A stretch of DNA of 64,000 bases from the NCBI GenBank assembly GCA_026710545.1, contig JAPOQU010000011.1, positions 1,155-65,154 on the forward strand, read 5' to 3'. The position numbers were made by a program, and so were the translations under genes. Shown here piece by piece: positions 9,738 through 56,417 of the stretch. Source of the DNA: Gammaproteobacteria bacterium (GTDB lineage Bacteria > Pseudomonadota > Gammaproteobacteria > Eutrophobiales > Eutrophobiaceae). Within the stretch, counting starts at the first letter, position 1. Every line of letters begins with the position of its first letter. Under the pieces are notes generated by a model. That model had not been told where the DNA came from, ran no database searches, and saw only the letters and a list, made by a program, of their open reading frames with translations.

Positions 9738-12179
9738 ATGAAATTATTGAATTACCTGGTTACGGTTCCTGTAATCACCTTATTCTCAGCCGGTATGTTT
9801 CAACTTCAGGCACAGGAGTCTCAGCCTGCTGCAGATAACGTGCTTGAGGAAATTATTACGATTGGTACCCGGACCCGGGACCGCAGTGTTGAAGACAGCC
9901 TGGTCCCGGTGGATATCATTACCGCTGATGACCTGGTCAGGTCGCCCAATATTGCCGGAGAACTGGGTGGCCTGTTACAGGCTGCCGTTGCTTCTTTCAG
10001 CATGCCGCGCCAATCCAACTCCGGCCATACCGATATCGTCAGGTCGGCGCAATTAAGGGGTTTGAGTCCGGACCAGGTGCTGGTCCTGGTGAATGGGAAG
10101 CGGCGCCATGCCAATTCGGTCATCAGTACTGAATCGAAGGTAGGCAGGGGCAGTGCGGCAGTGGATTTCAATAATATCCCCACCAGTGCGATTGAGCGCA
10201 TCGAGGTATTACGGGATGGCGCAGCAGCCCAGTACGGTTCGGATGCCATTGCCGGAGTCATTAACATCGTCCTCAAGGATAATACCGAAGGGGGCAGTAT
10301 CTCGGTTTCGTATGGGGGCCATATCACTGATCTGAAACCGGTCGACAAGAATATCACCGACGGAGAAACGGTGACCGTCAGTGCAAACCACGGGTTTTCT
10401 TTTGCCAACGGCTTCCTTAACCTCAGTGCGGAATACCGTGACAGATCATCGACCAACCGGTCAAGTTTCGACCAGTTGCCGACCATTGGCTTTGCGGAAT
10501 TCATCGCGCCGATCCCTTCCAGCGGGACACCGGAAGCCGCCCCGAATGATGCCCTGGCAGGCATGCGGAACTACCGGGAAGGCGATGGTGAATCAAGTGA
10601 TATAAACCTGATGTATAACGCCGGGTTCGATTTGAGCTCAGGATTCGAGCTATACAGTTTCGGCAGTTACTCGGAGCGTGACGGAGAAGGCTACAATTTC
10701 TTTCGTTATCCGGTCAGCGCAAATAACGTAGCTTCAGTATATCCCAACGGGTTCATGCCGATAAGTGACGCAGACATCACTGACTTCTCCGTAGCCGGCG
10801 GTATCACCGGCGAGTTGTCCGGTGGCTGGCTGGTCGATGCGAGCGTAGTACACGGTTTCAACGAGTTCTCCGACGGTGTAAAGAACACCATCAACTCTTC
10901 GCTGGGCGAGGCGAGCCCGACCGAATTTTACCGGGGCGAGTATGAATATTCGCAGACTGTGCTGAATTTTGATGTTTCCAGGGGGATGGAACTCGGCGCC
11001 ATACCGGTAAATGCCGCTGCAGGCCTGGAGTTTCGATTTGAGGATTACAGCACAAAGGCAGGTGACCCGGAATCCTATATCGCAGGGAACGCCGTAGCCT
11101 GTGCGGTCTGTATCACCTTCGGTAACAGCGATACGGCCAAGATCGGCGCGCAGAGCGGTCCGGGATTGACGCCGGCTGATGAAGTCGATGATGACCGGTT
11201 TTCCTGGTCGGCCTATATCGACCTGGAGTTTGATATTACTGATGACCTGCTGTTCTCAGTGGCGGGCAGGTTTGAAGATTACGATGATTTCGGCGATACG
11301 GTTAACGGTAAGGCTGCAGCCCGGTATGAGCTGTTCCCGGGCTTTGCCGTGCGCGCAAGCGTCAGCACCGGGTTCAGGGCGCCTTCCCTCGCACAGGCTT
11401 TTTTTACCGGCACGACGACCAGTTACGGTACCGGCGGCGCGCTGGTAAGAACATTGAGCCTGCCCGTGACCCATCCGATTGCGCGGGAGAACGGGGCAGA
11501 GGCTCTTGATGCTGAAGAATCACTGAGTAAAAGCATCGGTTTTACCTGGTCCCATGAGAACGGTCTCAGTCTGACCTTTGATTACTTCGAAGTGGATATC
11601 GATGATCGGATTGCACTGTCCCAGAACATACCTGTAGGCGGTGTGCCCGGTGTTGGCGGAGTCCGGTTTTTTACCAATGTTGCAGATACGGAAACCACCG
11701 GATTTGACGTGGTTGCAGCCTACCGGCGCGAGGGCTGGAATCTCTCGGTTGCGTATAACAACACCGATACTGATATCGTCAATAATCCGAACCGGGTGAT
11801 TATGGGTATCGAAGAGCAGAACACCTATGAGACGGCAGCGCCGGAAGATAAGCTGATTCTCACCGGATCATGGTCCAACGAAACCATTTCCGCCCTGGTG
11901 AGAGCGACGCGTTTCGGCGAAACGGAACGGATATTTGATTTCGGCGGGGGTTTTGAGCCGCAGCAGGTCTATGGCGCCGAATGGTCTGTCGATGCCGATC
12001 TTGAATATGCAATTAATGATAACTGGCGTATTTCAGCAGGGGCAAACAACCTGCTTGATGAATACCCTGACTTATCGATATTCGACATCAGCTATTTCGG
12101 CAACCTGCCGTATGACGTTCTTTCGCCTATCGGCGTTAATGGCCGCTTTGTTTACGTGAGGACAAGTTTCAGTTACTAG
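9738..12179 (+). CDS. TonB-dependent outer-membrane receptor
   Basis: Signal peptide, a plug domain (LEEIITIGTR, RIEVLRDGAAAQYGSDAIAGVINIVLK), a long beta-barrel region and a terminal aromatic residue. Confidence 0.9.
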   Translation: MKLLNYLVTVPVITLFSAGMFQLQAQESQPAADNVLEEIITIGTRTRDRSVEDSLVPVDIITADDLVRSPNIAGELGGLLQAAVASFSMPRQSNSGHTDIVRSAQLRGLSPDQVLVLVNGKRRHANSVISTESKVGRGSAAVDFNNIPTSAIERIEVLRDGAAAQYGSDAIAGVINIVLKDNTEGGSISVSYGGHITDLKPVDKNITDGETVTVSANHGFSFANGFLNLSAEYRDRSSTNRSSFDQLPTIGFAEFIAPIPSSGTPEAAPNDALAGMRNYREGDGESSDINLMYNAGFDLSSGFELYSFGSYSERDGEGYNFFRYPVSANNVASVYPNGFMPISDADITDFSVAGGITGELSGGWLVDASVVHGFNEFSDGVKNTINSSLGEASPTEFYRGEYEYSQTVLNFDVSRGMELGAIPVNAAAGLEFRFEDYSTKAGDPESYIAGNAVACAVCITFGNSDTAKIGAQSGPGLTPADEVDDDRFSWSAYIDLEFDITDDLLFSVAGRFEDYDDFGDTVNGKAAARYELFPGFAVRASVSTGFRAPSLAQAFFTGTTTSYGTGGALVRTLSLPVTHPIARENGAEALDAEESLSKSIGFTWSHENGLSLTFDYFEVDIDDRIALSQNIPVGGVPGVGGVRFFTNVADTETTGFDVVAAYRREGWNLSVAYNNTDTDIVNNPNRVIMGIEEQNTYETAAPEDKLILTGSWSNETISALVRATRFGETERIFDFGGGFEPQQVYGAEWSVDADLEYAINDNWRISAGANNLLDEYPDLSIFDISYFGNLPYDVLSPIGVNGRFVYVRTSFSY

Positions 12180-38293: not shown

Positions 38294-39175
38294 TTGCCAG
38301 GCAGGCTTGAAGGAAACACCTATTCGCTCATGGACACACAGAACCTGATTGAAGCCGGCAGGCTCGCCGAAGGAAAAGACCCTTTTGAGGCGACGATGAT
38401 CCTGAACCACAAACGCGCCATAGAGATGTTGGTTCAGGAGGTGGAATACGTGGATTTCAACATGTATACCTTCCTGAGCCTGCACGCCGTATTGTCGGAC
38501 AGTTTAATGAGCGACCCGGATGACAGCGGGCGCTTGCGGAACAAGATCGTTGAGATAGGCGGGTCTGTTTACATGCCGTTGGCGGTCCCCCAACAGGTAG
38601 AGCAGTATTTCAGGCTGATTCTGGACAAGGCAAAGGCCATCGACGACCCGTTTGAGCAGGCGTTTTTCCTGATGGTTCATATCCCGTACCTGCAGCCTTT
38701 TACCGATGTCAATAAGCGGGTGGCGCGGCTGGGCGCCAACATCCCGCTGATCAAAAACAGGCTGTGTCCGTTATCGTTCGTTGGCGTCCCCAAAAAAATC
38801 TATATTGAAGGGATGCTGGGCGTGTACGAACTGAACCAGCCCGACCTGCTGATGGACGTGTTCGTCTGGGCCTATGAACGGTCATGCCAACGGTACAATC
38901 TCTCAAAGGACCCTGCCGTCAAGCCCGATCCGTTCAGGCATAAATACAGGCCGATAATTGAATCAGTCATAAGCCGCATCGTCAAGGACAGGCTTGCATC
39001 CACTGCGGAATCCATTGCAAGCCTGACAGAAGGCCGTGTCCCTGATGAAGATATCGACAGGTTCATTGCTCTGGTTGACGATGAATTGCGCCGCCTGCAT
39101 GAGGCGGCACTGGCGCGATACAGGCTTCGGGTACCGGAATTTATCGAGTGGAAACAGATGCAGTCGGCGCGGTGA
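38294..39175 (+). CDS. Fic/Doc-family protein with a degenerate active-site motif, probably N-terminally truncated
   Basis: QPFTDVNKRVAR sits at the position of the Fic motif HPFx(D/E)GNGRxxR and resembles the Doc variant HxFxDxNKR, but with Gln for the catalytic His. The ORF begins at a TTG inside the LEGNTYSL helix. Confidence 0.6.
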   Translation: MPGRLEGNTYSLMDTQNLIEAGRLAEGKDPFEATMILNHKRAIEMLVQEVEYVDFNMYTFLSLHAVLSDSLMSDPDDSGRLRNKIVEIGGSVYMPLAVPQQVEQYFRLILDKAKAIDDPFEQAFFLMVHIPYLQPFTDVNKRVARLGANIPLIKNRLCPLSFVGVPKKIYIEGMLGVYELNQPDLLMDVFVWAYERSCQRYNLSKDPAVKPDPFRHKYRPIIESVISRIVKDRLASTAESIASLTEGRVPDEDIDRFIALVDDELRRLHEAALARYRLRVPEFIEWKQMQSAR

Positions 39176-39438
39176 TCACCGGCAGCGGCAACCTCAAGGT
39201 GCGGTACGTCATCCATGCCGTCGGTCCGCACAAGGGAGACGGGGACGAGGAGGAAAAACTCAGGAACGCGACACTGAACAGTCTGAAAGTCGCAGATGAA
39301 AATGGCCTGAAAAGCATCGGGTTTCCGGCCATCAGCACCGGTGTATTCGGTTTCCCGATTGAACGCTGCACGGAGATTATGCTTTCCAATACGATAAGCT
39401 ACCTGCAAAAAGAAACTGGCTCTGGTAGTATCCAATGA
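39163..39438 (+). pseudogene. macro-domain gene fragment 3 (3' two-thirds), abutting the Fic-like gene
   Basis: Encodes AVITGSGNLKVRYVIHAVGPHKGDGDEEEKLRNATLNSLKVADENGLKSIGFPAISTGVFGFPIERC... Confidence 0.85.
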
Positions 39439-42147: not shown

Positions 42148-42672
42148 ATGCAAATACAAATCAACAATAAAACCCTGCAACTCGCCGAAGGCGATATCAC
42201 CGAACTCCACACCGACGCCATCGTCAATGCGGCCAATACCTCGCTCATATTAGGCGCGGGAGTGGCCGGCGCCATTCGCGCCAAAGGCGGCCCTGCCATC
42301 CAGCAGGAATGCGATGAAATCGGCGGCTGTCCGGTAGGCGGCGCGGTAATCACCGGCGGCGGCAACCTCAAGGCGCGGCACGTCATCCATGCCGTCGGCC
42401 CGCGCAAGGGAGAAGGGGACGAAGAGGAAAAACTCAGGAACGCGACACTCAACAGCCTGAGAGTCGCAGACGAAAACGGCCTGAAAAGCATCGGGTTTCC
42501 GGCCATCAGTACGGGCGTTTTTGGTTTTCCGATTGAACGCTGCGCGGAGATCATGCTATCCGCCACGATAGATTACCTGCGGGGAGAAACCGGGCTGGTG
42601 AGAGTGGTTTTCTGTTTGTATGGGGAGGAGGCGTTCAGGGTTTTTGAGGGGGTTTTGGAGAAAATCCATTAA
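42148..42672 (+). CDS. stand-alone macro-domain protein (YmdB-like O-acetyl-ADP-ribose deacetylase family), the intact copy
   Basis: [42 protein letters not shown] and GFPAISTGVFGFP. Confidence 0.85.
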   Translation: MQIQINNKTLQLAEGDITELHTDAIVNAANTSLILGAGVAGAIRAKGGPAIQQECDEIGGCPVGGAVITGGGNLKARHVIHAVGPRKGEGDEEEKLRNATLNSLRVADENGLKSIGFPAISTGVFGFPIERCAEIMLSATIDYLRGETGLVRVVFCLYGEEAFRVFEGVLEKIH

Positions 42673-42677
42673 ATGGA

Positions 42678-44492
42678 TTGGGCTCTATTGATGTACTATC
42701 ATTGAGAACCGTGAACTATTATTCAGAAAATGCGCCGAGTCTGGTCTCAAAGTATAATTCCCTGAAGCCCGAATCTCTGCACGCGTCCTGGTTCAGTTTA
42801 ATTCCAGATGACCCGGGCATTGCCCTAGACATAGGCGCTGGCAGTGGGCGCGATGCATACTGGCTGGCTGAAAAAGGCTGGGACGTGATTGCCGTTGAGC
42901 CATGCAGGGAGTTTCGGGAACTGGCCAAACCGCGGGAACTGGCCAAACCGGATAGTCATGCTAACGTCATATGGCAGGATGATGAACTGCCCGAACTGAA
43001 ATCCCTCCGTACTGCCGGTCATCGATTCAATTTGATATTGTTGAGCGCCGTATGGATGCATGTATTGCCGAACAAGAGAGAGCGAGCATTCCGTATCATC
43101 AGCGAACTACTGGCGCCAGGAGGAATTCTGGTATTCACGCTACGTTACGGCACTGATGAGCGGGAAAACCTTGACAGAGGTTTCCATCCGGTCAGTAGTG
43201 GAGAACTGGAAAAATACGCTAAACAGCGTGCTTTGGCGCAGGTGTTTTATGAAGGATCAGAGGACCATCTGGCCAGGTCAAACGTTCGCTGGGAGACTCT
43301 GGTCTTTCAATTGCTGGACGATGGCACGGGCAGCCTGCCGCTGTTGCGCCACATCATCGTCAATGACGACAAGTCAGCCACCTATAAGTTGGGTTTGTTG
43401 CGCGCCTTGATACGTATAGCGGAAGGGGCACCGGGGATGGTGACCAAGCGTACCGATGATACTGTTGAGATACCCTTTGGATTAGTCGGGTTATACTGGA
43501 TCAAGCTCTATATGCCCCTGGTGCTGAAACACGGCCTTATCCAGTCTCCAAGCCATAAACCATTGGAGAAAAAAGGGCTTGGTTTCGCAAAAGAACATTT
43601 CTATCAGTTAGCGAGGTTTTCGTCGTTTGACCTGCGAATTGGCGCAATGTTTGACGCTGAGCACACCCGCCCCGTAGTTGGCGCAATCAGGGACGTTTGT
43701 AAAAATATTCAGGATATGCCTGCGAACTACATTACTTACCCCGGCAGAAGCGATCAGGTTTTTAACTGTGAAAGGCAAACGGTACGTTCAAAAAACGACA
43801 AGCCCTGGCGCATCGATAAGCAAACTCTGGCTGATTTTGGAGTCTTCGTAATACCAGCCAGCGTATGGCAATGTCTGGGACAATATGCCTGCTGGTTGGA
43901 ACCGGTTATCATCAACGAGTGGGCAAGGCTGATGCAGGGATACGATATAAAAAATAATGATTACAAATTCGGTGTCCCGCAATGGGCCATTTCGGGTCGG
44001 CACATCGCCGACCAGAGTCCTGATTCCAGGAAGGATTATTGCGAGGCGTTGCAATGGGAGGAAGGTCACCGTGATACCGAACCGGTACGCAAACGAGTGC
44101 AGGAGCTTCGGCAAAACGGCGAATCTGTCTATTGTGTCTGGACCAACGCAAGGCTGAAAGAGCGTTATGAGGTTGATCATTGCTTCCCCTGGAGTCGATG
44201 GTACAACAACGATCTCTGGAATTTGATGCCTGCGAGCACAACGGCTAACGGGAAAAAAAGAGAGAAGTTGCCGTCAGCGCCTTTATTGCATCACTCCCAA
44301 GGCCGTATTACAGACTGGTGGAACTCGGCTTATATTAACGGCAGGATGAAAGAACAATTCCTGCTGGAAGCCGCATCCACTCTACCTTTGGTGGATGATG
44401 GGATGATGGATTTGACTGCCATTTTTGAAGCCGTGATGCACCAGCGTGCAAAATTGAAAGCGAATCAACAATTAGCGGAGTGGTTGGGCTGA
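42678..44492 (+). CDS. fusion protein: class-I SAM-dependent methyltransferase + unknown central domain + C-terminal HNH nuclease
   Basis: SAM motif I is LDIGAGSGRDAYWLAEKGWDVIAVEP. The HNH motif is YEVDHCFPWSRWYNNDLWNLMPASTTANGKKREKLP. The apparent TTG start lies 5 nt after the macro stop. Confidence 0.7.
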   Translation: MGSIDVLSLRTVNYYSENAPSLVSKYNSLKPESLHASWFSLIPDDPGIALDIGAGSGRDAYWLAEKGWDVIAVEPCREFRELAKPRELAKPDSHANVIWQDDELPELKSLRTAGHRFNLILLSAVWMHVLPNKRERAFRIISELLAPGGILVFTLRYGTDERENLDRGFHPVSSGELEKYAKQRALAQVFYEGSEDHLARSNVRWETLVFQLLDDGTGSLPLLRHIIVNDDKSATYKLGLLRALIRIAEGAPGMVTKRTDDTVEIPFGLVGLYWIKLYMPLVLKHGLIQSPSHKPLEKKGLGFAKEHFYQLARFSSFDLRIGAMFDAEHTRPVVGAIRDVCKNIQDMPANYITYPGRSDQVFNCERQTVRSKNDKPWRIDKQTLADFGVFVIPASVWQCLGQYACWLEPVIINEWARLMQGYDIKNNDYKFGVPQWAISGRHIADQSPDSRKDYCEALQWEEGHRDTEPVRKRVQELRQNGESVYCVWTNARLKERYEVDHCFPWSRWYNNDLWNLMPASTTANGKKREKLPSAPLLHHSQGRITDWWNSAYINGRMKEQFLLEAASTLPLVDDGMMDLTAIFEAVMHQRAKLKANQQLAEWLG

Positions 44493-44551
44493 AGTTTGTG
44501 TTTGCAACTCCCGAAGCGGCGCTTATATTTACTTGGTTTTGCTTGGATTGT

Positions 44552-45394
44552 CTACTTGTGACAAGCTAAACAAACCTTTGTCTGTCCATATAAATCATCA
44601 ATATCCAGCGGGTCGTAATCAGGCCGTAGTGGATTAGGTTGTATTTTGGCGCGCATACGTAGAAGACGTTGTTCGTGTTCCTGCTGGATTTGCTGTACCC
44701 GCTCGGGTTTTTCCAGTTCTTCCAGTGGTTCGCCTTGACTCCAAGTGAATGGGGAACCTTGGTCCAGAGAATTTTTTTCGTAAGCTTTGGCTTCCTTAAA
44801 TGCTTCGGGATGGTGTTCTTTCAATCGGACCCATTCGATTTTCTGCTGGAAAAAACAGAATGTACACCCGCTACGGGTTCGCCATGCATAGTATGTCGGC
44901 AAACCAAGGCCCGCTCCGTCAAGAATTTCAAGCACGCCAAGCTTATCAATGCCTGTTTCCCTAAAAGGTAGTCGTACTATAAGCCGCTCGTTTTTGGATG
45001 CATAGCCTTCGCGATATTCCTCATCCGAACGGATAGCGACATAGCTGTAGATCGTTTCCCCGTCTTCAAGCTTGGGGCGCAGCCAGTGTTCGAATGGCCG
45101 CAGTTTCAGTTGTCTGGTACACCAGCGGCTTTGCGGTGACGGCAGAAAATCATTGTACTGCTTAAGCCAGAAGTCGAATTCCCGGTCTGGATTCAGTCGT
45201 AAGATCGGCTGCCCCAGAAAACCTTCCAGGCGCCCGAGATATTCATACACTTCCGGCAGTTCTTTACCGGTGTCCGTGAAAAAATATTCAATATCCAGTT
45301 CCGGGTGATGTTGCCGCATATATACGGCCAAGGCCGCACTGTCTCGACCACCTGACAAGCCCAACACATGCCGCTCATTGGCAACGATACTCAT
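44552..45394 (-). CDS. PP-loop ATP pyrophosphatase of the PAPS-reductase family (DndC/SspD/BrxP-like)
   Basis: PP-loop LSGGRDSAA, RWCTRQLK, the Cys cluster SGCTFCFF and a C-terminal CLAC. Its ATG overlaps the stop of the upstream ATPase (ATGA). Confidence 0.75.
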   Translation of the reverse strand: MSIVANERHVLGLSGGRDSAALAVYMRQHHPELDIEYFFTDTGKELPEVYEYLGRLEGFLGQPILRLNPDREFDFWLKQYNDFLPSPQSRWCTRQLKLRPFEHWLRPKLEDGETIYSYVAIRSDEEYREGYASKNERLIVRLPFRETGIDKLGVLEILDGAGLGLPTYYAWRTRSGCTFCFFQQKIEWVRLKEHHPEAFKEAKAYEKNSLDQGSPFTWSQGEPLEELEKPERVQQIQQEHEQRLLRMRAKIQPNPLRPDYDPLDIDDLYGQTKVCLACHK

Positions 45395-48300
45395 GACGCT
45401 GTCTGTTCCTTTTGCTTTGAATCATTGGGTTCGTTTGCTGCTTGTTTGAGATAGCGGGCGCTTAATTCCGCCAAGGCTGCAAGGATTATATTGCGGCGTC
45501 TTTCCCCACTGCGCTCAAGTGTTTTATCTACCCGTTTGATCAACTCGTCCACTTGAGTACGTTCCAGGTCGGTAACGACAAATTCATCGTGAAAAGGTGT
45601 GGGTCTGTTATCCATTCCAACCACCACGGCCATGGCATGGCGTTTGTCCGGTCGTCCTTTTACCCGAGCGAATGTTTCAGCCCGGAGGAATTTTTGCGCC
45701 AGTTCAGCAATCTCGATTGCTGTCCGATCAAGATCGGGATCAATCCAGTTACGGGGCGGCTTGCTTGCTGCCAAGCTGGCTATGCTCTCGAAGCTTGCGT
45801 CACTGTTACTGAACTGTGCAAGCCTTCCGATAAATGCCTCAAGCTTGAAGTCTCCGACTGCCTGGCTGATATTCTTCGCACGCTCATGCAATTCCGCCAG
45901 GGATTGTTGGGACATATTGGGCACTTGCAACTCTTCAAACATAATGTGGCGTAATCGACGTAGCATCGAAGGATAGGCTTGTACCAATTCCTCCAGGCCA
46001 TCACGAATATTATCGACAACGTGGGGTAGCGAGTTCTCGTCTATTTTGGTGATATGCTCTCCCAGTGTTGCGGGAATGTCGTCAAACAGAAACTTGTTCG
46101 GATCCCGTGCGTGCTTGAACATGTTTCTGATACGCACCGCATTGGCTGATAGCCGCATCGTCCGTTTGGTCCATTGTGGTAATTGATCGTAAATTGCTAC
46201 GAGGCCGCGGGCAACGTCAATCGGTTCAAGTTGAGTAAGCTGGTTGGTTTCATCCAGGTCCCGGACGATTGCCGCCATTTCTGACAACAACCTTCGAGCA
46301 ATGTCGGATAAATCCATCCACCTGATTTGGATGGTGCGTGCATCTTTTGCCAGGTAGTCAACGTCCACGTCGTCAAATCGAGGTTTGAACAACCCTTCCC
46401 GGTAGATCGCCAGTTTATCCCGTTGGGATAATATGAATGCGACAGAGAGAATCGGCAGTAGTCCGTCTTTAACGCCAAATGGCGGTTTAAGCCAGAGAGC
46501 ATACAAGTCTGAGACAGCTATAGTTGTTTCTTTTATGTTATTGATTGCAGCGTCCCACATTGGTACTAAATTACAGGGATCCATGCTTTCCAGAGGGGAC
46601 ATGAATTGCCACCTGTCCTGGTTTTGACGATACAGTCCGGACGTTTTTAATATCGATTCAAGCAAACCGACTTCCGGAGGAAATTTTTCGATACCCAGCC
46701 GTGGTTCTCCTTCGTTCAAAACCATATGTCGCAATAAACTGTTTTGTGCAGCTACTGCACTGCTTGAGGGTTTTTGGCGGTTTAACAACTCGTTATGCAG
46801 GCGCGGAGATTTGTTAAAGCGAAGGCTTGCCAATTCCGATGCAAGGTAATTAAGATCGGCTCGCCGCAAATGTCGTCCGTCGTGTGTTCTGCTGAACCAC
46901 TCAGCAGTATCGAATGTCTTGAGCAACTCTTCCTCAATAAGGGATTGCAAGGCCCCATGACGCTCCGAAATCTCCCGTTTCGCCACAGGGTCGCCTGTCA
47001 AATCGGGATTTTCTTTATTCACCAACTGCAATGCAAATAATTCACGGGCTAGCGGAATAATGGACCAGGAAATCCTGGACAGACCTATAGTGCTATCCCA
47101 TAGGCCAGGATGGTTTGCTGCCTCCCGGCATCGTTCCCTTGCTTCTTCTTCACTTTCATCCGCAGTCGGAAGCGCAAGTAAAAACTGGCCTATGGTGCCA
47201 TTTTCCGGCTTGAAACAAGTCACAGCCTCAATCAGCTCACTGAGTGACGTAATGTTGACCTCAAACCAGCGCAGTGCCCCTGTCTCGTGGTAATGGCGCT
47301 TGGCCAGGACAGGATGTAAGCCCACAAGCGATTTAAGTTCCATTAAATCGATCTCATCTATTTCTTTCAGGGCTGACCGGGTGGCTTGGTCAATATCAAA
47401 ATCACTTCCCGCATAGATGGCGTGTACGCCAAGGAATTTTTTGAAAATGGTGAGTGACCATTTATCCAGTTGCGACAGGGCTTCCTCAAGCTCCCGGAAG
47501 GGTATTTCACGAAAGCAGGTTTTCAATATGTCAGAGTTCGCAACGATCCCTGAGCGTTCTTTGAATAAGTCCAACACCGCGATGGTTTTCATCAGCTTGA
47601 CATGAATTTCGTCGCCGCCTTGAGCTTCGCACCGCTCAAGCGCTTCGGCCGCCAAAGCCCAGCGATGTCCGTCTGGCGAGGCCAGGATAGACGGTTCCAG
47701 GTTGGCGCGCAGGTAGTCCCAGAGCAGGTCAGGGGTGTACAATTTTGCAGCCTCGGCGTGTTTCAGAAAATCCTGAAATCCGTACAACTCTGCCGAGTTC
47801 AGAAAGCTGAACAGGCTGCGTTGGTTCTGCCCGAAACGGCGACGCGAGATGGGTCCGAGTAAGCAGGTAACGACCGGGTGTAAGGGGCAGCATCCGAGAA
47901 GCTTGGAGGCAAGTCGCTCAGCGTCAGGCGTATTGTTCCGTTGGACAGCTATGGCTACATCAGTGCAGAGCTTGTCCATGCCTTCAGGCTGGTAATCACT
48001 CTCAATTGCGCGGGAAATCAGTTCTACCTGTTCTTCACCCGTGACACTGATAACAAGATCAATGAAGCGTCCTTGTACCTTGGCCCATTCATCACGTATC
48101 TCGTGTGAAAGACGGTGGGTATATGCCTCAAATGATTGGTGCAATATGCCGATTATAAGCAAACGCCCTTCACTCCGTGACGCAGCTTCGGCAAGCTGCT
48201 GAAAAACATAAATATCTGAACCATCTCTCACCGCGGCCTCAAGGAATTTGCCCATTTCATCAATAAACAACACAAGGCCGCCGTAGGTTTCGGGCCTGTA

Positions 48301-48774
48301 TTTGGCGGCATTCATGAGTGAGGTGACCAGCTTGCTTTCGGTCCAACCTCCACGGGGTCGACGCGCTACGACCTCGTTTTGTAAAAGGGTTTCACCAATA
48401 ACGCTGACAGGATCATCTCGTGTGCCAACGACCGGAACAATGCGCCATCCTTCAAGGCCGAGCGGTAACGCTTTTCCGACATCATTGGTCAGTTCCGGTC
48501 CAAATACTTTCTCCGCGTGCTCGCGCATAGATAGGTTGCCATTCAACAATGCGCCTAACGCAAGGACCAGGCTTGACTTTCCGCTACCGTAAGGACCCGT
48601 CCAGGTAAATGCCCCTTGCCCGGTTTCGGAGATATGGTTTGCCATGGTTTTCAGAACGTCGGCGAAGGACTGTGGGCAAATATACCCTTCCAAGGCTGAA
48701 CCATCAGTCAGGTCTGTGTCTATGCGTACTGATCTGAGAAAGCGGCTTGCAATATGGACACGTTCGTTCGGCAT
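45391..48774 (-). CDS. 1127-aa P-loop ATPase (BrxC/SspC-like architecture)
   Basis: Walker A FTWTGPYGSGKSSLV and Walker B GGLVLFIDEMGKF, followed by a helical region of about 850 aa. The family assignment is by architecture only. Confidence 0.6.
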   Translation of the reverse strand: MPNERVHIASRFLRSVRIDTDLTDGSALEGYICPQSFADVLKTMANHISETGQGAFTWTGPYGSGKSSLVLALGALLNGNLSMREHAEKVFGPELTNDVGKALPLGLEGWRIVPVVGTRDDPVSVIGETLLQNEVVARRPRGGWTESKLVTSLMNAAKYRPETYGGLVLFIDEMGKFLEAAVRDGSDIYVFQQLAEAASRSEGRLLIIGILHQSFEAYTHRLSHEIRDEWAKVQGRFIDLVISVTGEEQVELISRAIESDYQPEGMDKLCTDVAIAVQRNNTPDAERLASKLLGCCPLHPVVTCLLGPISRRRFGQNQRSLFSFLNSAELYGFQDFLKHAEAAKLYTPDLLWDYLRANLEPSILASPDGHRWALAAEALERCEAQGGDEIHVKLMKTIAVLDLFKERSGIVANSDILKTCFREIPFRELEEALSQLDKWSLTIFKKFLGVHAIYAGSDFDIDQATRSALKEIDEIDLMELKSLVGLHPVLAKRHYHETGALRWFEVNITSLSELIEAVTCFKPENGTIGQFLLALPTADESEEEARERCREAANHPGLWDSTIGLSRISWSIIPLARELFALQLVNKENPDLTGDPVAKREISERHGALQSLIEEELLKTFDTAEWFSRTHDGRHLRRADLNYLASELASLRFNKSPRLHNELLNRQKPSSSAVAAQNSLLRHMVLNEGEPRLGIEKFPPEVGLLESILKTSGLYRQNQDRWQFMSPLESMDPCNLVPMWDAAINNIKETTIAVSDLYALWLKPPFGVKDGLLPILSVAFILSQRDKLAIYREGLFKPRFDDVDVDYLAKDARTIQIRWMDLSDIARRLLSEMAAIVRDLDETNQLTQLEPIDVARGLVAIYDQLPQWTKRTMRLSANAVRIRNMFKHARDPNKFLFDDIPATLGEHITKIDENSLPHVVDNIRDGLEELVQAYPSMLRRLRHIMFEELQVPNMSQQSLAELHERAKNISQAVGDFKLEAFIGRLAQFSNSDASFESIASLAASKPPRNWIDPDLDRTAIEIAELAQKFLRAETFARVKGRPDKRHAMAVVVGMDNRPTPFHDEFVVTDLERTQVDELIKRVDKTLERSGERRRNIILAALAELSARYLKQAANEPNDSKQKEQTAS

Positions 48775-48997
48775 TATCGGCTTGGTTTCTCTACAGGGAC
48801 TCTATCGTAATTGGAGAATATGTACGGAAGCGTCCTTTCTTCTTGATATTGAAATTGCGAACAACTTATTTCAAGTTCAATTTTAATGTCTGGGATATGT
48901 TATAGTCAATCTGTGATCGCAGGTTTTTCTCGCGTTTTGCATATGGCGTCCTGGCTCTGTCCAAAGTAGGGTTTTATATTCTACCTGATTGAACTAA

Positions 48998-50203
48998 ATG
49001 AGAATTTCAGAAACCATCTATTTCGATCATCAAGCTACGACTCCCGTTGACCAGCGCGTTTCAGACCGCATGCTGCCTCATTTCAGCGAAACCTTCGGCA
49101 ACTCCCACTCCGCAGATCATGTTCTAGGCTGGAAAAGCTCTCAGGCTGTGGAGCAGGCGGCAGTCCAAGTAGCGAGTCTGGTCAGCGCCGACCCCGATGA
49201 GATCATTTTCACGTCAGGCGCCACGGAAGCGAATAACATGGCCTTGCTCGGTCTTGCTCGACGTGTGCATCCTGAAAGCAGGAGGCGGCGGTTTATCCTC
49301 AGCGAAATTGAACACAAGTGCGTACTTGCAGCCGGGCGGGCTATTTCTGACCAACTTGGTTTTCCCGTAGATCATCTACCTGTCGACAATGAAGGCCACG
49401 TCCTGTTGACGTCTTTGGAAAATGCCTTGGATGAAGACGTACTCGCCGTTTCCATCATGGCGGTAAATAATGAAATCGGCACAATTCAGGACATCCAAAA
49501 AATTTCCGAACTGGTCAGGAATGCAGGCGCCATATTTCATTGCGACGCAGCCCAGGCCCCTATTTCCGTAGACATGCGGGGAATTGTCGAGCATGTGGAC
49601 ATGTTGAGTCTATCCGCCCACAAGATGTACGGGCCAAAAGGCATCGGCGCGCTCTACATCCGTCGGGAGTTACAGGATCGCCTGGAACCGCTTATCTACG
49701 GCGGGGGACAGCAGAACGGTTTACGCTCAGGCACCGTCCCTACGGCCTTGTGCGTCGGCATGGGTGCGGCCGCCGAACTTCTGAGTGGCTATGAGGCAAT
49801 GCAAAAACATACTCTCCTGTGCCAAAGACGGGACCGCTTTCTCGAAAAATTGTCGGACTTGCCCTGGGCCATCCGATTGAACGGCCCCACCGGAGAATCC
49901 CGCCATCCCGGCAATGCCAATATTTGCTTCGAAGGTTTCTACGCCCAGGATATTTTACAAGTGCTTCAACCCCATCTTGCCGCTTCTACCGGGTCGGCCT
50001 GCACGTCCGGCATTCCGGAACCTTCCCACGTTCTCAAAGCCATAGGTCTGTCCCTTGAAGATGCCGAAGCATCCATCCGCTTCAGTCTTGGCTTTGACAC
50101 TACAGACGAAGATATTGATGATGCGGTAAACTTGATAGACAATGCGCTTAATAGACTTTCGGCCACGCAGATTAAGGCTTCAGCGATGGCCGGCGTCGGC
50201 TAA
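48998..50203 (+). CDS. class-V PLP-dependent cysteine desulfurase (IscS/NifS/DndA/SspA-like), stand-alone
   Basis: FDHQATTP, SGATEANN, PLP-lysine motif SAHKMYGPKG and active-site Cys in STGSACTSG. There are no isc or suf neighbours. Confidence 0.85.
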   Translation: MRISETIYFDHQATTPVDQRVSDRMLPHFSETFGNSHSADHVLGWKSSQAVEQAAVQVASLVSADPDEIIFTSGATEANNMALLGLARRVHPESRRRRFILSEIEHKCVLAAGRAISDQLGFPVDHLPVDNEGHVLLTSLENALDEDVLAVSIMAVNNEIGTIQDIQKISELVRNAGAIFHCDAAQAPISVDMRGIVEHVDMLSLSAHKMYGPKGIGALYIRRELQDRLEPLIYGGGQQNGLRSGTVPTALCVGMGAAAELLSGYEAMQKHTLLCQRRDRFLEKLSDLPWAIRLNGPTGESRHPGNANICFEGFYAQDILQVLQPHLAASTGSACTSGIPEPSHVLKAIGLSLEDAEASIRFSLGFDTTDEDIDDAVNLIDNALNRLSATQIKASAMAGVG

Positions 50204-50222
50204 AATATGATTCAAATAGTGG

Positions 50223-50264
50223 ATTCCGGTCCCTGCTTTCGCAGGGATAAACTTAAACCGGAAT
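50223..50264. repeat. nested REP-like inverted repeat
   Basis: ATTCCGGT...ACCGGAAT encloses TCCCTGCTTTCGCAGGGA. The CTGCTTTCGCAG core recurs near 53545. Confidence 0.7.
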
Positions 50265-53632: not shown

Positions 53633-55288
53633 TCAGTCCAGGTATGTGGGTTCCACGGCCACCCAGGCGGTATGGATAATCTCGGCCAGCCGTCCCGGCA
53701 TCTTTGCCATGGCCACCCTGGACGGCAGCATCATCAGGGTGTTCGGGTGGATGTAGTACACGTCCTCCTGGGTGATCAGGTTCCTGTCGGCATAGACTTC
53801 GCCGCCGGCCTTGTTGATGTCCACGTTCATGCGGTAACGGCTGGCCTGTTTCGTGCCGCTCTGCCGGGCCGCGTATTCGGCAGTTTCAAAGTCATTGGGC
53901 TGGTAGTACAGGGACATCTTGCAGTTGTTCTCCACGCTGTATTCAAGGGCTTCGATGTTGACCAGGCGCCGGTTGACGGATTTCAGGTCGCCCAGGCTCT
54001 GGTAGGCAATGGCGATATGGCAGTCGAAGCCGGTGATGGTCGCCAGCATGTCCCCGAGAATATCGGTGGCGAGGAACTTGACTTCGTCTATGGCTATGAA
54101 CAGGTGACTGGCGCGTTCGCGGCGCCTGTGCATGCGCGTCGCCGCCTGCAGCAGGCACAGCAGGAATACCTGGGTGGCGCGTTTGACAACCGGGTCGGTC
54201 GCCGACGAGCGTACGTACAGGACGGCGTTCTCCCGTAGCACACGCTCGATATCGACTCCCTTGCTGCGTCCGGGCCTCAGTGCGGACAGGGCCAGCAACT
54301 CCCGGGTCAGGTTAGTGACGGTCGGCGGTGGTTTCGTTGAGGCCCTCAGCAGTTTCGGCAAATCAATAAGTTCCCTGTTCCACTTGTCGAACACGGATTC
54401 CAGGAATTCCCGCTCCCCTATCTTGTAGAAATCCGCCGTGTCGCCCCGCTCCGACAGGTTATAGGCGTGCATCAACCGTGTCTTGACCTCCCGCTCGGTG
54501 CCGGTCCTGAACGGCGACCACTTCCCCGGCAGTTCGCCGTTGAAATCCACGGTAACCAGCCGCCTGCCGCTGTCTTCGCAGGCTTTTCGCATTATCCCCA
54601 ATGCGTGCCGGTCCGGCTTGACGTCAAAGAAGACCGTACAAAACCCCTGGCGCACGGACTGGTCCAGTTGCACGCCGAATAACACCCCCTTGCCGCTCTG
54701 GGTGGCGCCTACCATCCGCTGGTTCCACAACTTCCAGTCATCCGCGGCGACGTGCAGGGGAGTGTTGTCCTGGCGCAGTCCCATGAATATGTTCCCGGCC
54801 CGGTAGTATTTCCCGGGCAGGAACTGTTTTTTCCGGAACCGGTCGGCCTCACTGCGTATATCGGAAACCTGGTCGCCGCGTTGCGATACCCGCCTGAATA
54901 TGTACCAGGACGAGAAGCGCGGGTACAGGTAGCGCAGGAATACGACCCGGGTAAGCGCGCCGCCCAGCAGTCCCCCCGCAATCAGGCCCCACATCCTGCC
55001 GGCCTGGTCAATGACGACTATGTTTACTATAGTGCCGGCAGCCGTAAGATCCCCGGTAACACCGGCCGCCAGGAACCACAGGATCAGGGGGAAACCCGGG
55101 AACAACATAAGGAACAGGAGCAGCAGGACCCGGCGCGCGTGCATCAGCAGGTGTTCAGCCGATGTCAGTTCCCTTTCCGATGTCAGCGGCAGGAAGCCGA
55201 TAACGGTATTGGTATAAAGAATTGCGGCAAAGCACACCCAGAACCAGGGGTCGCTCCAGTTTGCCAGTCGGGGCAGAAGATCATCCAT
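53633..55288 (-). CDS. type IV secretion coupling protein (TraD/TraG/VirD4 family)
   Basis: N-terminal TM helices, Walker A MVGATQSGKGV and Walker B HLFIAIDEV. The start is set at MDDLLPRL because the longer ORF (to 55459) overlaps the divergent gene. Confidence 0.7.
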   Translation of the reverse strand: MDDLLPRLANWSDPWFWVCFAAILYTNTVIGFLPLTSERELTSAEHLLMHARRVLLLLFLMLFPGFPLILWFLAAGVTGDLTAAGTIVNIVVIDQAGRMWGLIAGGLLGGALTRVVFLRYLYPRFSSWYIFRRVSQRGDQVSDIRSEADRFRKKQFLPGKYYRAGNIFMGLRQDNTPLHVAADDWKLWNQRMVGATQSGKGVLFGVQLDQSVRQGFCTVFFDVKPDRHALGIMRKACEDSGRRLVTVDFNGELPGKWSPFRTGTEREVKTRLMHAYNLSERGDTADFYKIGEREFLESVFDKWNRELIDLPKLLRASTKPPPTVTNLTRELLALSALRPGRSKGVDIERVLRENAVLYVRSSATDPVVKRATQVFLLCLLQAATRMHRRRERASHLFIAIDEVKFLATDILGDMLATITGFDCHIAIAYQSLGDLKSVNRRLVNIEALEYSVENNCKMSLYYQPNDFETAEYAARQSGTKQASRYRMNVDINKAGGEVYADRNLITQEDVYYIHPNTLMMLPSRVAMAKMPGRLAEIIHTAWVAVEPTYLD

Positions 55289-55418
55289 ATTCCTGTCAGC
55301 CGGCACTCCGTACGCCGGCTTCCTCCTGTTATTTCCATCAGCCTTGAATTTTAGCAGGATTTTTGGGATATTACCCCAAATTTCCAGGAACAGGTATGGA
55401 TATGGATAAAGGACAATC

Positions 55419-56417
55419 ATGTTAACCGCGTTAACCAGCGCCGACTGGGAACTGGTCAAATTCTATCTCTCCCCCATCCAGCCCCTCATGGATAACGACC
55501 AGGTGACCAATATCATGGTCAACCGTTATGACGACATCTGGGCGGACGACCTGGAGCGGGGGATGTATAAAACCACGCTTGCCTTCCCCGATGATGCCGC
55601 GGTCGCCACCTTGATCGAACAGATTGCCAATGCGCTGGCGCAGTATTTCGAACCGGCCCGGACGCCTGTCATCAATGCCCGCCTGCCTGACGGCAGCCGG
55701 GTCTGTGCGACCCTGCCGAGCGCCACGCCTTCAGGTTGTACCTTGTCGATTCGCCTGCACCGGCGCCGCGGTCTCGACCTGGAACACCTGGTAAAGAGCC
55801 ATACCATCGATGCGGCAATGAAAGACGTGTTGCTGGATGCCGTCGAACGCGGCGATAATCTCCTGGTTTCCGGCGCCACCAACAGCGGCAAAACCACCTT
55901 GTTGAATGCCTTGTCCTTTGCCATTCCGCAGCGAGAACGGATCGTGGTCTGTGAGGATGTGACCGAGATCAGGCTCAACGCGCCCAATGCCATACAAATG
56001 GAGGCGCAACGACAAGATCCCGGGGATACTCCCTCTCTCAGCCTCGCAATACTTCTCGCGACCTCCCTGCGCCAGAGACCGGACCGGATCATCGTCGGGG
56101 AGATCAGGGAACCGGATGCCGCCGAGGTGTTCTTCCAGGCGCTGAATACGGGCCACCGCGGCGTGTACACGACAATACATGCGAACAACGCCAGGGCCGC
56201 GCTCAAGCGCCTCGTCAGCCTGACAATGGGCAGTTCAACATTGCCTTTCGAGGTGATCGAAGCCGAATACCTGCACAACCTGGACCTGGTTCTGCACATG
56301 GACTACCTTGAAGCCAGGGGGGTCAGGCGCCTGACGGAGATATGCGTTGTCGAGGCGGGAGAGTTGCTGCCCCGTTACGTTTACGACGCGGCTGATGATG
56401 CATGGCAGGAGAAGTGA
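55419..56417 (+). CDS. VirB11/TrbB/CpaF-family secretion ATPase
   Basis: Walker A LVSGATNSGKTTLLNAL, Walker B RIIVGEIR and His box TTIHAN. Confidence 0.8.
   Translation: MLTALTSADWELVKFYLSPIQPLMDNDQVTNIMVNRYDDIWADDLERGMYKTTLAFPDDAAVATLIEQIANALAQYFEPARTPVINARLPDGSRVCATLPSATPSGCTLSIRLHRRRGLDLEHLVKSHTIDAAMKDVLLDAVERGDNLLVSGATNSGKTTLLNALSFAIPQRERIVVCEDVTEIRLNAPNAIQMEAQRQDPGDTPSLSLAILLATSLRQRPDRIIVGEIREPDAAEVFFQALNTGHRGVYTTIHANNARAALKRLVSLTMGSSTLPFEVIEAEYLHNLDLVLHMDYLEARGVRRLTEICVVEAGELLPRYVYDAADDAWQEK

Follow-up and report, generated by a model that had tools for sequence, protein, structure and literature searches.

We analysed a 64-kb stretch of gammaproteobacterial DNA (contig JAPOQU010000011.1; hereafter the window), in which an initial annotation made from the sequence alone had singled out four genes as a candidate sulfur-based DNA modification and restriction system. 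These genes encode a methyltransferase fused to an HNH nuclease domain (MTase::HNH; 42678..44492, plus strand, 604 amino acids (aa), TTG start), a PP-loop protein that we identify below as SspD (44552..45394, minus strand, 280 aa), a giant ATPase, SspC (45391..48774, minus strand, 1127 aa), and a cysteine desulfurase, SspA (48998..50203, plus strand, 401 aa). The list of open reading frames (ORFs) of the window reproduces the reported coordinates and sizes exactly, and every motif quoted for the four proteins (SAHKMYGPKG, GSACTSG, GPYGSGKSS, LVLFIDEMG, SGGRDS, RWCTRQLK, SGCTFCFF and CLAC) is found in the translations. The stop of the ATPase gene and the start of the PP-loop gene overlap as ATGA (read as tcATGAgt), and the domain calls are upheld by Pfam (Aminotran_5, PAPS_reduct, and a methyltransferase with HNH_4). 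Pfam and PADLOC profile scans covered the ORFs from 29 to 50 kb; very strong profile matches mark the four ORFs as real genes, not chance reading frames.

An ssp locus that has lost sspB

The 1127-aa ATPase, which the initial annotation had left unrecognised, matches SspC over its full length (PADLOC PDLC02780, E=0, 1311 bits, profile positions 3-1044 of 1045), with the BrxC profile a distant second (356 bits, 7.9e-107). Its Walker A motif (GPYGSGKS) lies at residue 60 and its Walker B motif (LFIDEMG) at residue 169, within the LVLFIDEMG at about residue 167; it has no significant Pfam family and no sequence relative in the PDB. The 280-aa protein is matched by the SspD profile from end to end (PADLOC 2.1e-135, positions 1-277 of 277), carries the SGGRDS motif and has a Pfam PAPS_reduct match (8.4e-6); its scores against BrxP (2.6e-9, a partial match) and DndC (1.9e-5 in PADLOC, 5.6e-4 in NCBIfam) are far poorer. 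For the desulfurase, the SspA profile scores best (PADLOC 1.1e-130), with DndA close behind (3e-127), alongside matches to Pfam Aminotran_5 (5.6e-80) and to the SspA structure 6M4J in the PDB (8.6e-60). NCBIfam contains no SspC or SspD model and public records of homologs of these proteins are named 'ATP-binding protein' or 'hypothetical', which is why a reader of the raw sequence missed both. SspD has a single relative of solved structure, the 270-aa 'PptA' in chain C of PDB entry 21fy (E 6.8e-7); the same entry holds a chain with the sequence of E. coli IscS (1p3w), and we found no paper on the 21fy 'PptA'.

Judged by these profiles, sspA, sspC and sspD belong to the published Ssp machinery for single-strand DNA phosphorothioation. 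The earlier proposal that the desulfurase, the ATPase and the PP-loop enzyme form a DNA-phosphorothioation core was thus correct, but the core is not an undescribed one, since PADLOC identifies it as SspA/SspC/SspD. In this machinery SspA is a cysteine desulfurase that takes sulfur from cysteine as a persulfide, SspC is a BrxC-like ATPase, and the mark produced is a single-strand phosphorothioate (PT) at 5'-CpsCA-3' in genomic DNA. The minimal gene set for PT has been given as sspBCD (PMC12914056, PMC8092258). Within it the subunit that binds and nicks DNA is SspB, a DUF4007 protein with a helix-turn-helix (HTH) and two winged HTH (wHTH) domains, whose nicking is reported to be essential (PMC8092258, PMC12914056, PMC12839542, PMC10853773).

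The gene for this subunit is the one that the window lacks. As the initial annotation had reported, DndB/D/E, DUF4007/SspB, SspE, PglZ and BrxL are all absent from the vicinity of the locus. Pfam and PADLOC scans of neighbouring ORFs gave no DUF4007/SspB match; tblastn of the 64 kb with three SspB queries returned only an 18-aa C-terminal match at 48789-48842, and hmmsearch of all six frames of the 64 kb with an HMM of three SspB sequences (--max) found nothing beyond this remnant.

Canonical relatives of the locus account for the gap. Three of them (L087, L088 and L089), with 66-77% SspC identity, have the gene order sspA | DUF4007-sspC-sspD, and L087 and L088 occupy the same chromosomal position as the window locus, beside genes for glyoxalase I and peptidase M17. 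The sspA gene of the window lies ~98 bp from the glyoxalase gene, as it does in these two relatives. L087 is complete, reading Glyox-sspA | sspB-sspC-sspD | SspE (PADLOC SspB 4.5e-109, SspE E=0). When the minus strand of the window is aligned to L087 by blastn, the match takes in the 5' end of sspA, crosses the intergenic region as far as L087 position 6984 and resumes at 7903. The intervening deletion of ~0.92 kb (L087 positions 6985-7902) comprises 48 bp of leader and ~290 of the 323 sspB codons. At the junction lies a TTGA microhomology (window ~48871-48874), and the last ~33 codons of sspB survive as a 3' remnant of ~100 nt (48775..48874, minus strand) that contains an in-frame stop and a 1-nt deletion. 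Of the 75 SspC-relative loci from a metagenome scan whose upstream sequence extends to 1.1 kb or more, 74 have sspB directly upstream of sspC; the sole exception is L086, from the window's own lineage. From this alignment the missing sspB is read as the product of a deletion in a once-complete sspABCD locus. The reduced gene content that had suggested a minimal new variant is due to this secondary deletion and does not represent a distinct architecture.

A promoter-like site (TTGACT-18 nt-TAAAAT; 48880..48909, minus strand), with 10 of 12 consensus matches, is kept in L087 upstream of the intact sspB and in the window stands ~100 nt upstream of sspC. We infer that this is the former sspB promoter, retained and now placed before sspC-sspD; because it survives immediately upstream of the junction, sspC-sspD are probably still transcribed.

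The sspB-less arrangement is not confined to the window. Three diverged copies share the deletion junction: the window itself (identical to L001), L086, which is a 97% identical relative with the window's arrangement and likewise without sspB, and L171. Between the window and L171, sspC has accumulated 136 synonymous and 61 non-synonymous differences (dS 0.20, dN/dS 0.12, binomial p=7e-42); compared with L086 the figures are 44 and 30 (dN/dS 0.20, p=2e-11), and for sspD the dN/dS against L086 is 0.02. On this measure the sspB-less sspC-sspD pair is kept by purifying selection and is not simply dead. The sequences flanking the junction differ visibly between L171 and the window, and for this reason the deletion is taken to be older than the split between them. 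A sliding-window comparison with L086 further delimits a tract (44391..48912) of 96-100% identity that spans sspD, sspC and the deletion junction, set between flanks of 67-90%. The dS values show the same step: 0.06-0.07 for sspC/sspD, as against 0.67 for sspA, 0.83 for MTase::HNH and 0.59 for the peptidase M17 gene. This sharp contrast between the tract and its flanks indicates a recent exchange of sspB-less sspCD between backbones that had already diverged.

The relatives also carry genes for which the window has no counterpart. Downstream of the cassette, L088 has a DndB-like protein and further genes, and L089 (Nitrococcus mobilis) a set of PLD, HATPase and helicase genes; in L087 an integrase lies further out. 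None of these effector-side genes (SspE, DndB-like, PLD, HATPase, helicases) has a match in the window by tblastn at E<=1e-3. The window holds no SspE, SspFGH or DndB-like effector, and the PADLOC scan of neighbouring ORFs recognised no Ssp effector.

The MTase::HNH gene and its surroundings

The MTase::HNH protein combines a methyltransferase domain at residues 42-163 (Pfam Methyltransf_23/11/25) with an HNH_4 domain at residues 493-532, and its AlphaFold2 (AF2) model has a pLDDT of 84 and a pTM of 0.85. The N-terminal domain, whose best Foldseek match is TehB (1.6e-7), resembles small-molecule class I methyltransferases and not DNA methyltransferases. A Foldseek search with the full-length model is dominated by this domain and is uninformative on the remainder. 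The C-terminal 395 aa (residues 210-604, AF2 pLDDT 83) gave only weak matches to Cas9-type HNH domains in the PDB (E>=0.08), and the helical middle domain had no significant Foldseek match there. The S-adenosylmethionine (SAM) motif DIGAGSGRD and the HNH residues D500, H501, N510/N511, N515, N524 and K527 do not vary across 40 sequences, and both domains are therefore probably active.

The initial annotation had seen this gene in the place of a nickase or restriction effector; its product has neither sequence nor structural similarity to SspB (hhalign, Foldseek). A cryptic SspB/BrxA-like wHTH triad in the middle domain was considered and rejected (hhalign probability of 0.3% against the SspB profile), as was a likeness of residues 210-604 to SspB, BrxA, FokI or the ScoMcrA sulfur-binding domain (SBD), with no Foldseek match in a PDB that includes SspB as 6JUF and 6LB9. 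Neither hhalign nor Foldseek found an SspB-like DNA-binding module (HTH plus two wHTH) in the protein, and neither Pfam nor Foldseek a PT-reading SBD/wHTH or SRA domain.

The distribution of the family separates it from Ssp. It has 1974 matches at E<=1e-5 and occurs in at least 569 GTDB species, among them Gammaproteobacteria, Latescibacterota and Gemmatimonadota; it is also found on alphaproteobacterial plasmids and chromids, and the plasmid homologs have no ssp or dnd neighbours. We examined 80 sampled MTase::HNH loci, each from a different species and with ±10 kb of flank, for the co-occurrence expected of a fourth system gene. Not one of the 80 has sspC within 10 kb, and intact sspD or cysteine desulfurase genes are likewise absent over this distance; the only ssp traces are a 199-aa SspD-like match (L050) and a 55-aa sspA remnant (L010). 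Conversely, no full-length MTase::HNH is present in 81 SspC-relative loci of other lineages (L087-L090, L091-L170). The only adjacency of the two outside the window's lineage is in L097, from a TARA metagenome, where a frameshifted and truncated MTase::HNH copy (4559-5606, minus strand; 59% identity, 170 aa, no HNH) stands beside the sspA of a complete sspABCD.

In the window, MTase::HNH is immediately preceded by a Macro gene (42148..42672, plus strand; Pfam Macro 4.2e-42). This order is kept in L005-L009 and L012, with the two genes adjacent in four loci and 2-2.5 kb apart in two, and a backbone of Macro, MTase::HNH, glyoxalase and peptidase M17 is common to all these loci, none of which has the ssp cassette. 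By blastn boundaries the cassette behaves as a presence/absence segment (44474..50257), the site being empty in L006-L009 and L012. Two further relatives retain fragments: L010 a 153-bp sspA 3' remnant (11756-11908, equivalent to window 49997-50149), and L005 a 59-bp sspD 3' remnant (6859-6917, equivalent to window 44556-44614). These empty sites and remnants beside a kept MTase::HNH indicate that the ssp cassette was lost repeatedly and stepwise at this site while MTase::HNH stayed. MTase::HNH is an independent neighbour, a member of a widespread stand-alone defence-island family, and not part of Ssp; the idea of an undescribed four-gene sulfur-based modification-restriction system does not hold, and the lack of co-occurrence across genomes is a refutation that the initial annotation had itself named.

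Clustering of the neighbours in the 80 loci revealed no universal partner gene for MTase::HNH, the Macro gene being a partner only in the closest relatives. The best candidate, present in 15 of the 80 loci (e.g. L024 4082-7183, L078 6810-10001), is a PLD-SF2 helicase-DUF3427 protein of ~1033 aa, which PADLOC identifies as a type IV methyl-directed restriction enzyme (3e-252). In most of these 15 loci its gene abuts MTase::HNH on the same strand, often with a start/stop overlap, and the two may form a two-gene module. Further neighbours, typical of defence islands, include McrC/DUF3578, a dGTPase together with a NERD nuclease, and HNH genes accompanied by insertion sequence elements. The family is labelled only 'class I SAM-dependent methyltransferase' and often adjoins type IV restriction genes; we regard it as a candidate for a defence gene that stands alone.

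Between 29 and 50 kb the window contains a defence island in which the ssp slot, beside glyoxalase I and peptidase M17, is variable. Between 29141 and 39175 it encodes an AAA_14+DUF4143 protein (PADLOC PDC-S01, 8.6e-47), a fragment of a HipA-like kinase (PDC-M66A), a 487-aa protein with two HTH domains (capH/RmrA-like), a 398-aa AAA_16/STAND-like ATPase and, at 38294-39175, a Fic protein (SoFic/PDC-S04-like). This is followed by a truncated second Macro copy (39148-39438, plus strand, 96 aa), clearly similar to the gene at 42148-42672. The two Macro copies are separated by genes for a PIN toxin, a small putative antitoxin and a DUF2335 protein; the counterparts of the toxin-antitoxin pair in L086 have PIN and MazE_antitoxin domains. 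The arrangement suggests that an insertion or duplication split an ancestral Fic-Macro-MTase::HNH order, as found in L005. Just beyond the peptidase M17 gene, 53633-56417 contains genes of the conjugation/T4SS type, namely a TraG/VirD4-like ORF of 608 aa and a VirB11/T2SSE-like ORF of 332 aa; relatives have a TrbM gene in their syntenic region. Taken as a whole, this stretch may constitute an integrative element.

Methyltransferases of a related kind occur inside other ssp operons. About 10 of 85 ssp loci (L094, L098, L107, L112, L116 (7067-8272), L117, L120, L129, L141 and L152) have an insert of ~1.2 kb between sspC and sspD, which encodes a TehB-like class I SAM methyltransferase of ~215 aa (Methyltransf_25/23, TehB 7.6e-5) with 23-28% identity to the methyltransferase domain of the window protein (E 6e-6 to 6e-11). 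In most of these loci it is paired with a protein of ~175-186 aa whose N-terminus reads as hydrophobic and which has no Pfam family. This methyltransferase, which in L116 occupies 7628-8272, may be an undescribed Ssp accessory. In Nitrococcus mobilis (L089 4482-5863, L090 2-1254), a ~218-aa Methyltransf_23 protein followed by a 198-aa PLDc_2 nuclease is encoded beside the sspA of a complete sspABCD, a pair that may be regarded as analogous to the fused MTase::HNH.

Relation to known phosphorothioation systems

The closest described system is SspABCD-SspE of Vibrio cyclitrophicus FF75 and E. coli 3234/A (Xiong et al. 2020, as cited in PMC8092258 and PMC12839542). By profile, SspA, SspC and SspD of the window are clear orthologs of its proteins, and the two agree in the divergence of sspA from the operon and in the overlap of sspC and sspD; the relative L087 carries the full sspABCD-sspE. 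The window differs in its sspB deletion, with a remnant of 100 nt, and in having no linked effector. The latter is common: 83.9% of 2,678 sspBCD loci are without sspE or sspFGH (PMC8092258). These orphan sspBCD modules resemble the window locus in having no recognised restriction partner, but they keep sspB and the window does not.

Type 4 BREX (BrxP-BrxC-PglZ-BrxL; PMC12914056, PMC12839542) is more distant. SspC is homologous to BrxC, and SspD to the PAPS-reductase part of BrxP, but the window proteins score far better on the Ssp profiles, and the window SspD has no fused DUF4007. Membership was rejected on these scores and on the absence of PglZ and BrxL among the ORFs scanned at 29-50 kb. 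DndABCDE shares a cysteine desulfurase, against whose DndA profile SspA scores nearly as well, and a PAPS-reductase-family sulfurtransferase. Here the DndC match is marginal and there is no match to the DndD ABC ATPase, DndE or DndB, and membership in Dnd was likewise rejected. TdpABC, in which the single gene for TdpC suffices for PT synthesis, shows by analogy only that PT can be inserted when no dedicated nickase takes part (PMC12914056). Lastly, MTase::HNH recalls the PT-dependent HNH enzymes of the ScoMcrA type (wHTH/SBD + SRA + HNH; PMC10853773) in that it likewise ends in an HNH domain and adjoins PT genes. It differs from them in having a TehB-like N-terminus and neither SBD/wHTH nor SRA, and in belonging to a family that is not generally linked to PT loci.

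Possible SspB-independent activity and its alternatives

The account that we consider probable is that of two unrelated neighbours: a known Ssp module minus sspB, present as a selected sspB-less allele, and a Macro and MTase::HNH pair that belongs to the backbone. Deletion of sspB put sspC-sspD directly behind the site that matches the old sspB promoter. We would guess that the transfer of sulfur from SspA to SspD and on to DNA continues without the SspB nick, in which case sites would be chosen less strictly or through another factor. Since TdpC can make PT by itself (PMC12914056), a nickase-free synthesis of PT is conceivable on chemical grounds. Several points weigh against this account. 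SspB is published as essential, which argues against autonomous PT synthesis (PMC8092258, PMC12914056). Our view is that of a 64-kb window, and a second sspB, or the BrxP of a type 4 BREX, may lie elsewhere in the genome. MTase::HNH adjoins the sspB-less cassette in both lineages with visible context, its degenerate copy stands beside sspA in the unrelated locus L097, and the recurrence of TehB-like methyltransferases in other ssp operons leaves room for some functional link.

The next most likely explanation after SspB-independent sulfur transfer, albeit an unlikely one in our estimation, is that an intact SspB, or a BrxP with its fused DUF4007, is encoded elsewhere and serves SspC/SspD in trans, yielding normal sequence-specific PT. 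Persisting normal function is the simplest account of the purifying selection that acts on sspC and sspD; moreover, sspA/iscS genes can, as is known, serve from a distance (PMC8092258), and dnd and ssp clusters occur together in some genomes (PMC12914056). On the other hand the 64-kb window contains no SspB, sspBCD is present in only ~3% of genomes (PMC12914056), so that all three sspB-less lineages would need a second locus, and in essentially all relatives SspB and SspC are encoded by overlapping genes of one operon, which suggests tight cognate pairing. That the cassette is instead an inert, decaying remnant, non-functional since the loss of effector and sspB and heading for loss itself, strikes us as more doubtful still. 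Such an outcome would fit the reported requirement of SspB for single-strand PT (PMC8092258, PMC12914056), the further decay in sister lineages (the 153-bp sspA and 59-bp sspD remnants of L010 and L005, and the empty sites) and the degeneration of the sspB remnant by an in-frame stop and a 1-nt indel. It does not fit full-length sspA, sspC and sspD with intact motifs, the low dN/dS since the shared deletion (0.12 for sspC, p=7e-42; 0.02 for sspD), or the recent exchange of the sspB-less tract between diverged genomes.

We give equally little credence to a single four-gene PT modification-restriction system in which MTase::HNH replaces the SspB nickase or the SspE effector. Its placement invites the comparison, as it is convergent with sspD and so occupies the position of SspE in L087, its HNH domain could nick DNA, and the selected sspB-less allele adjoins it in both informative lineages. 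The large share of sspBCD loci without a known effector (83.9%; PMC8092258) leads one to expect other partners, and in ~10 of 85 loci a TehB-like methyltransferase ~25% identical to its methyltransferase domain is encoded in the gap between sspC and sspD, while Nitrococcus mobilis has a methyltransferase and PLD nuclease pair beside sspA. Yet sspC is within 10 kb of none of its 80 sampled homologs, its homologs on plasmids are likewise free of ssp and dnd neighbours, the gene was kept after ssp loss in L005, L010, L006-9 and L012, and a dS of 0.83 against 0.06 means that MTase::HNH and sspCD do not travel together. Moreover, hhalign and Foldseek show no homology of the protein to SspB, SBD and SRA domains are absent from it, and the two lineages in which it adjoins the allele share one backbone and are not independent observations. 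More specifically, MTase::HNH could have taken over the role of SspB in a functional SspA-SspC-SspD system, its HNH domain nicking DNA and its TehB-like domain acting on or sensing the PT sulfur, a version that we rate lower again. The TehB-like methyltransferases of ssp loci and the Nitrococcus methyltransferase and PLD pair are hints in its favour; the closest structural relatives of the TehB-like domain methylate chalcogen nucleophiles. SspC and SspD with a selectable activity that needs no SspB would be a less radical proposal than such a takeover.

Our preferred reading thus remains a known module in an altered form, and what is new here, modestly so, is a natural sspB-less sspCD allele maintained by selection. 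A natural sspB-deletion allele under selection challenges sspBCD as the minimal functional set of the Ssp pathway, and offers a natural test of SspB-independent activity of SspC and SspD.

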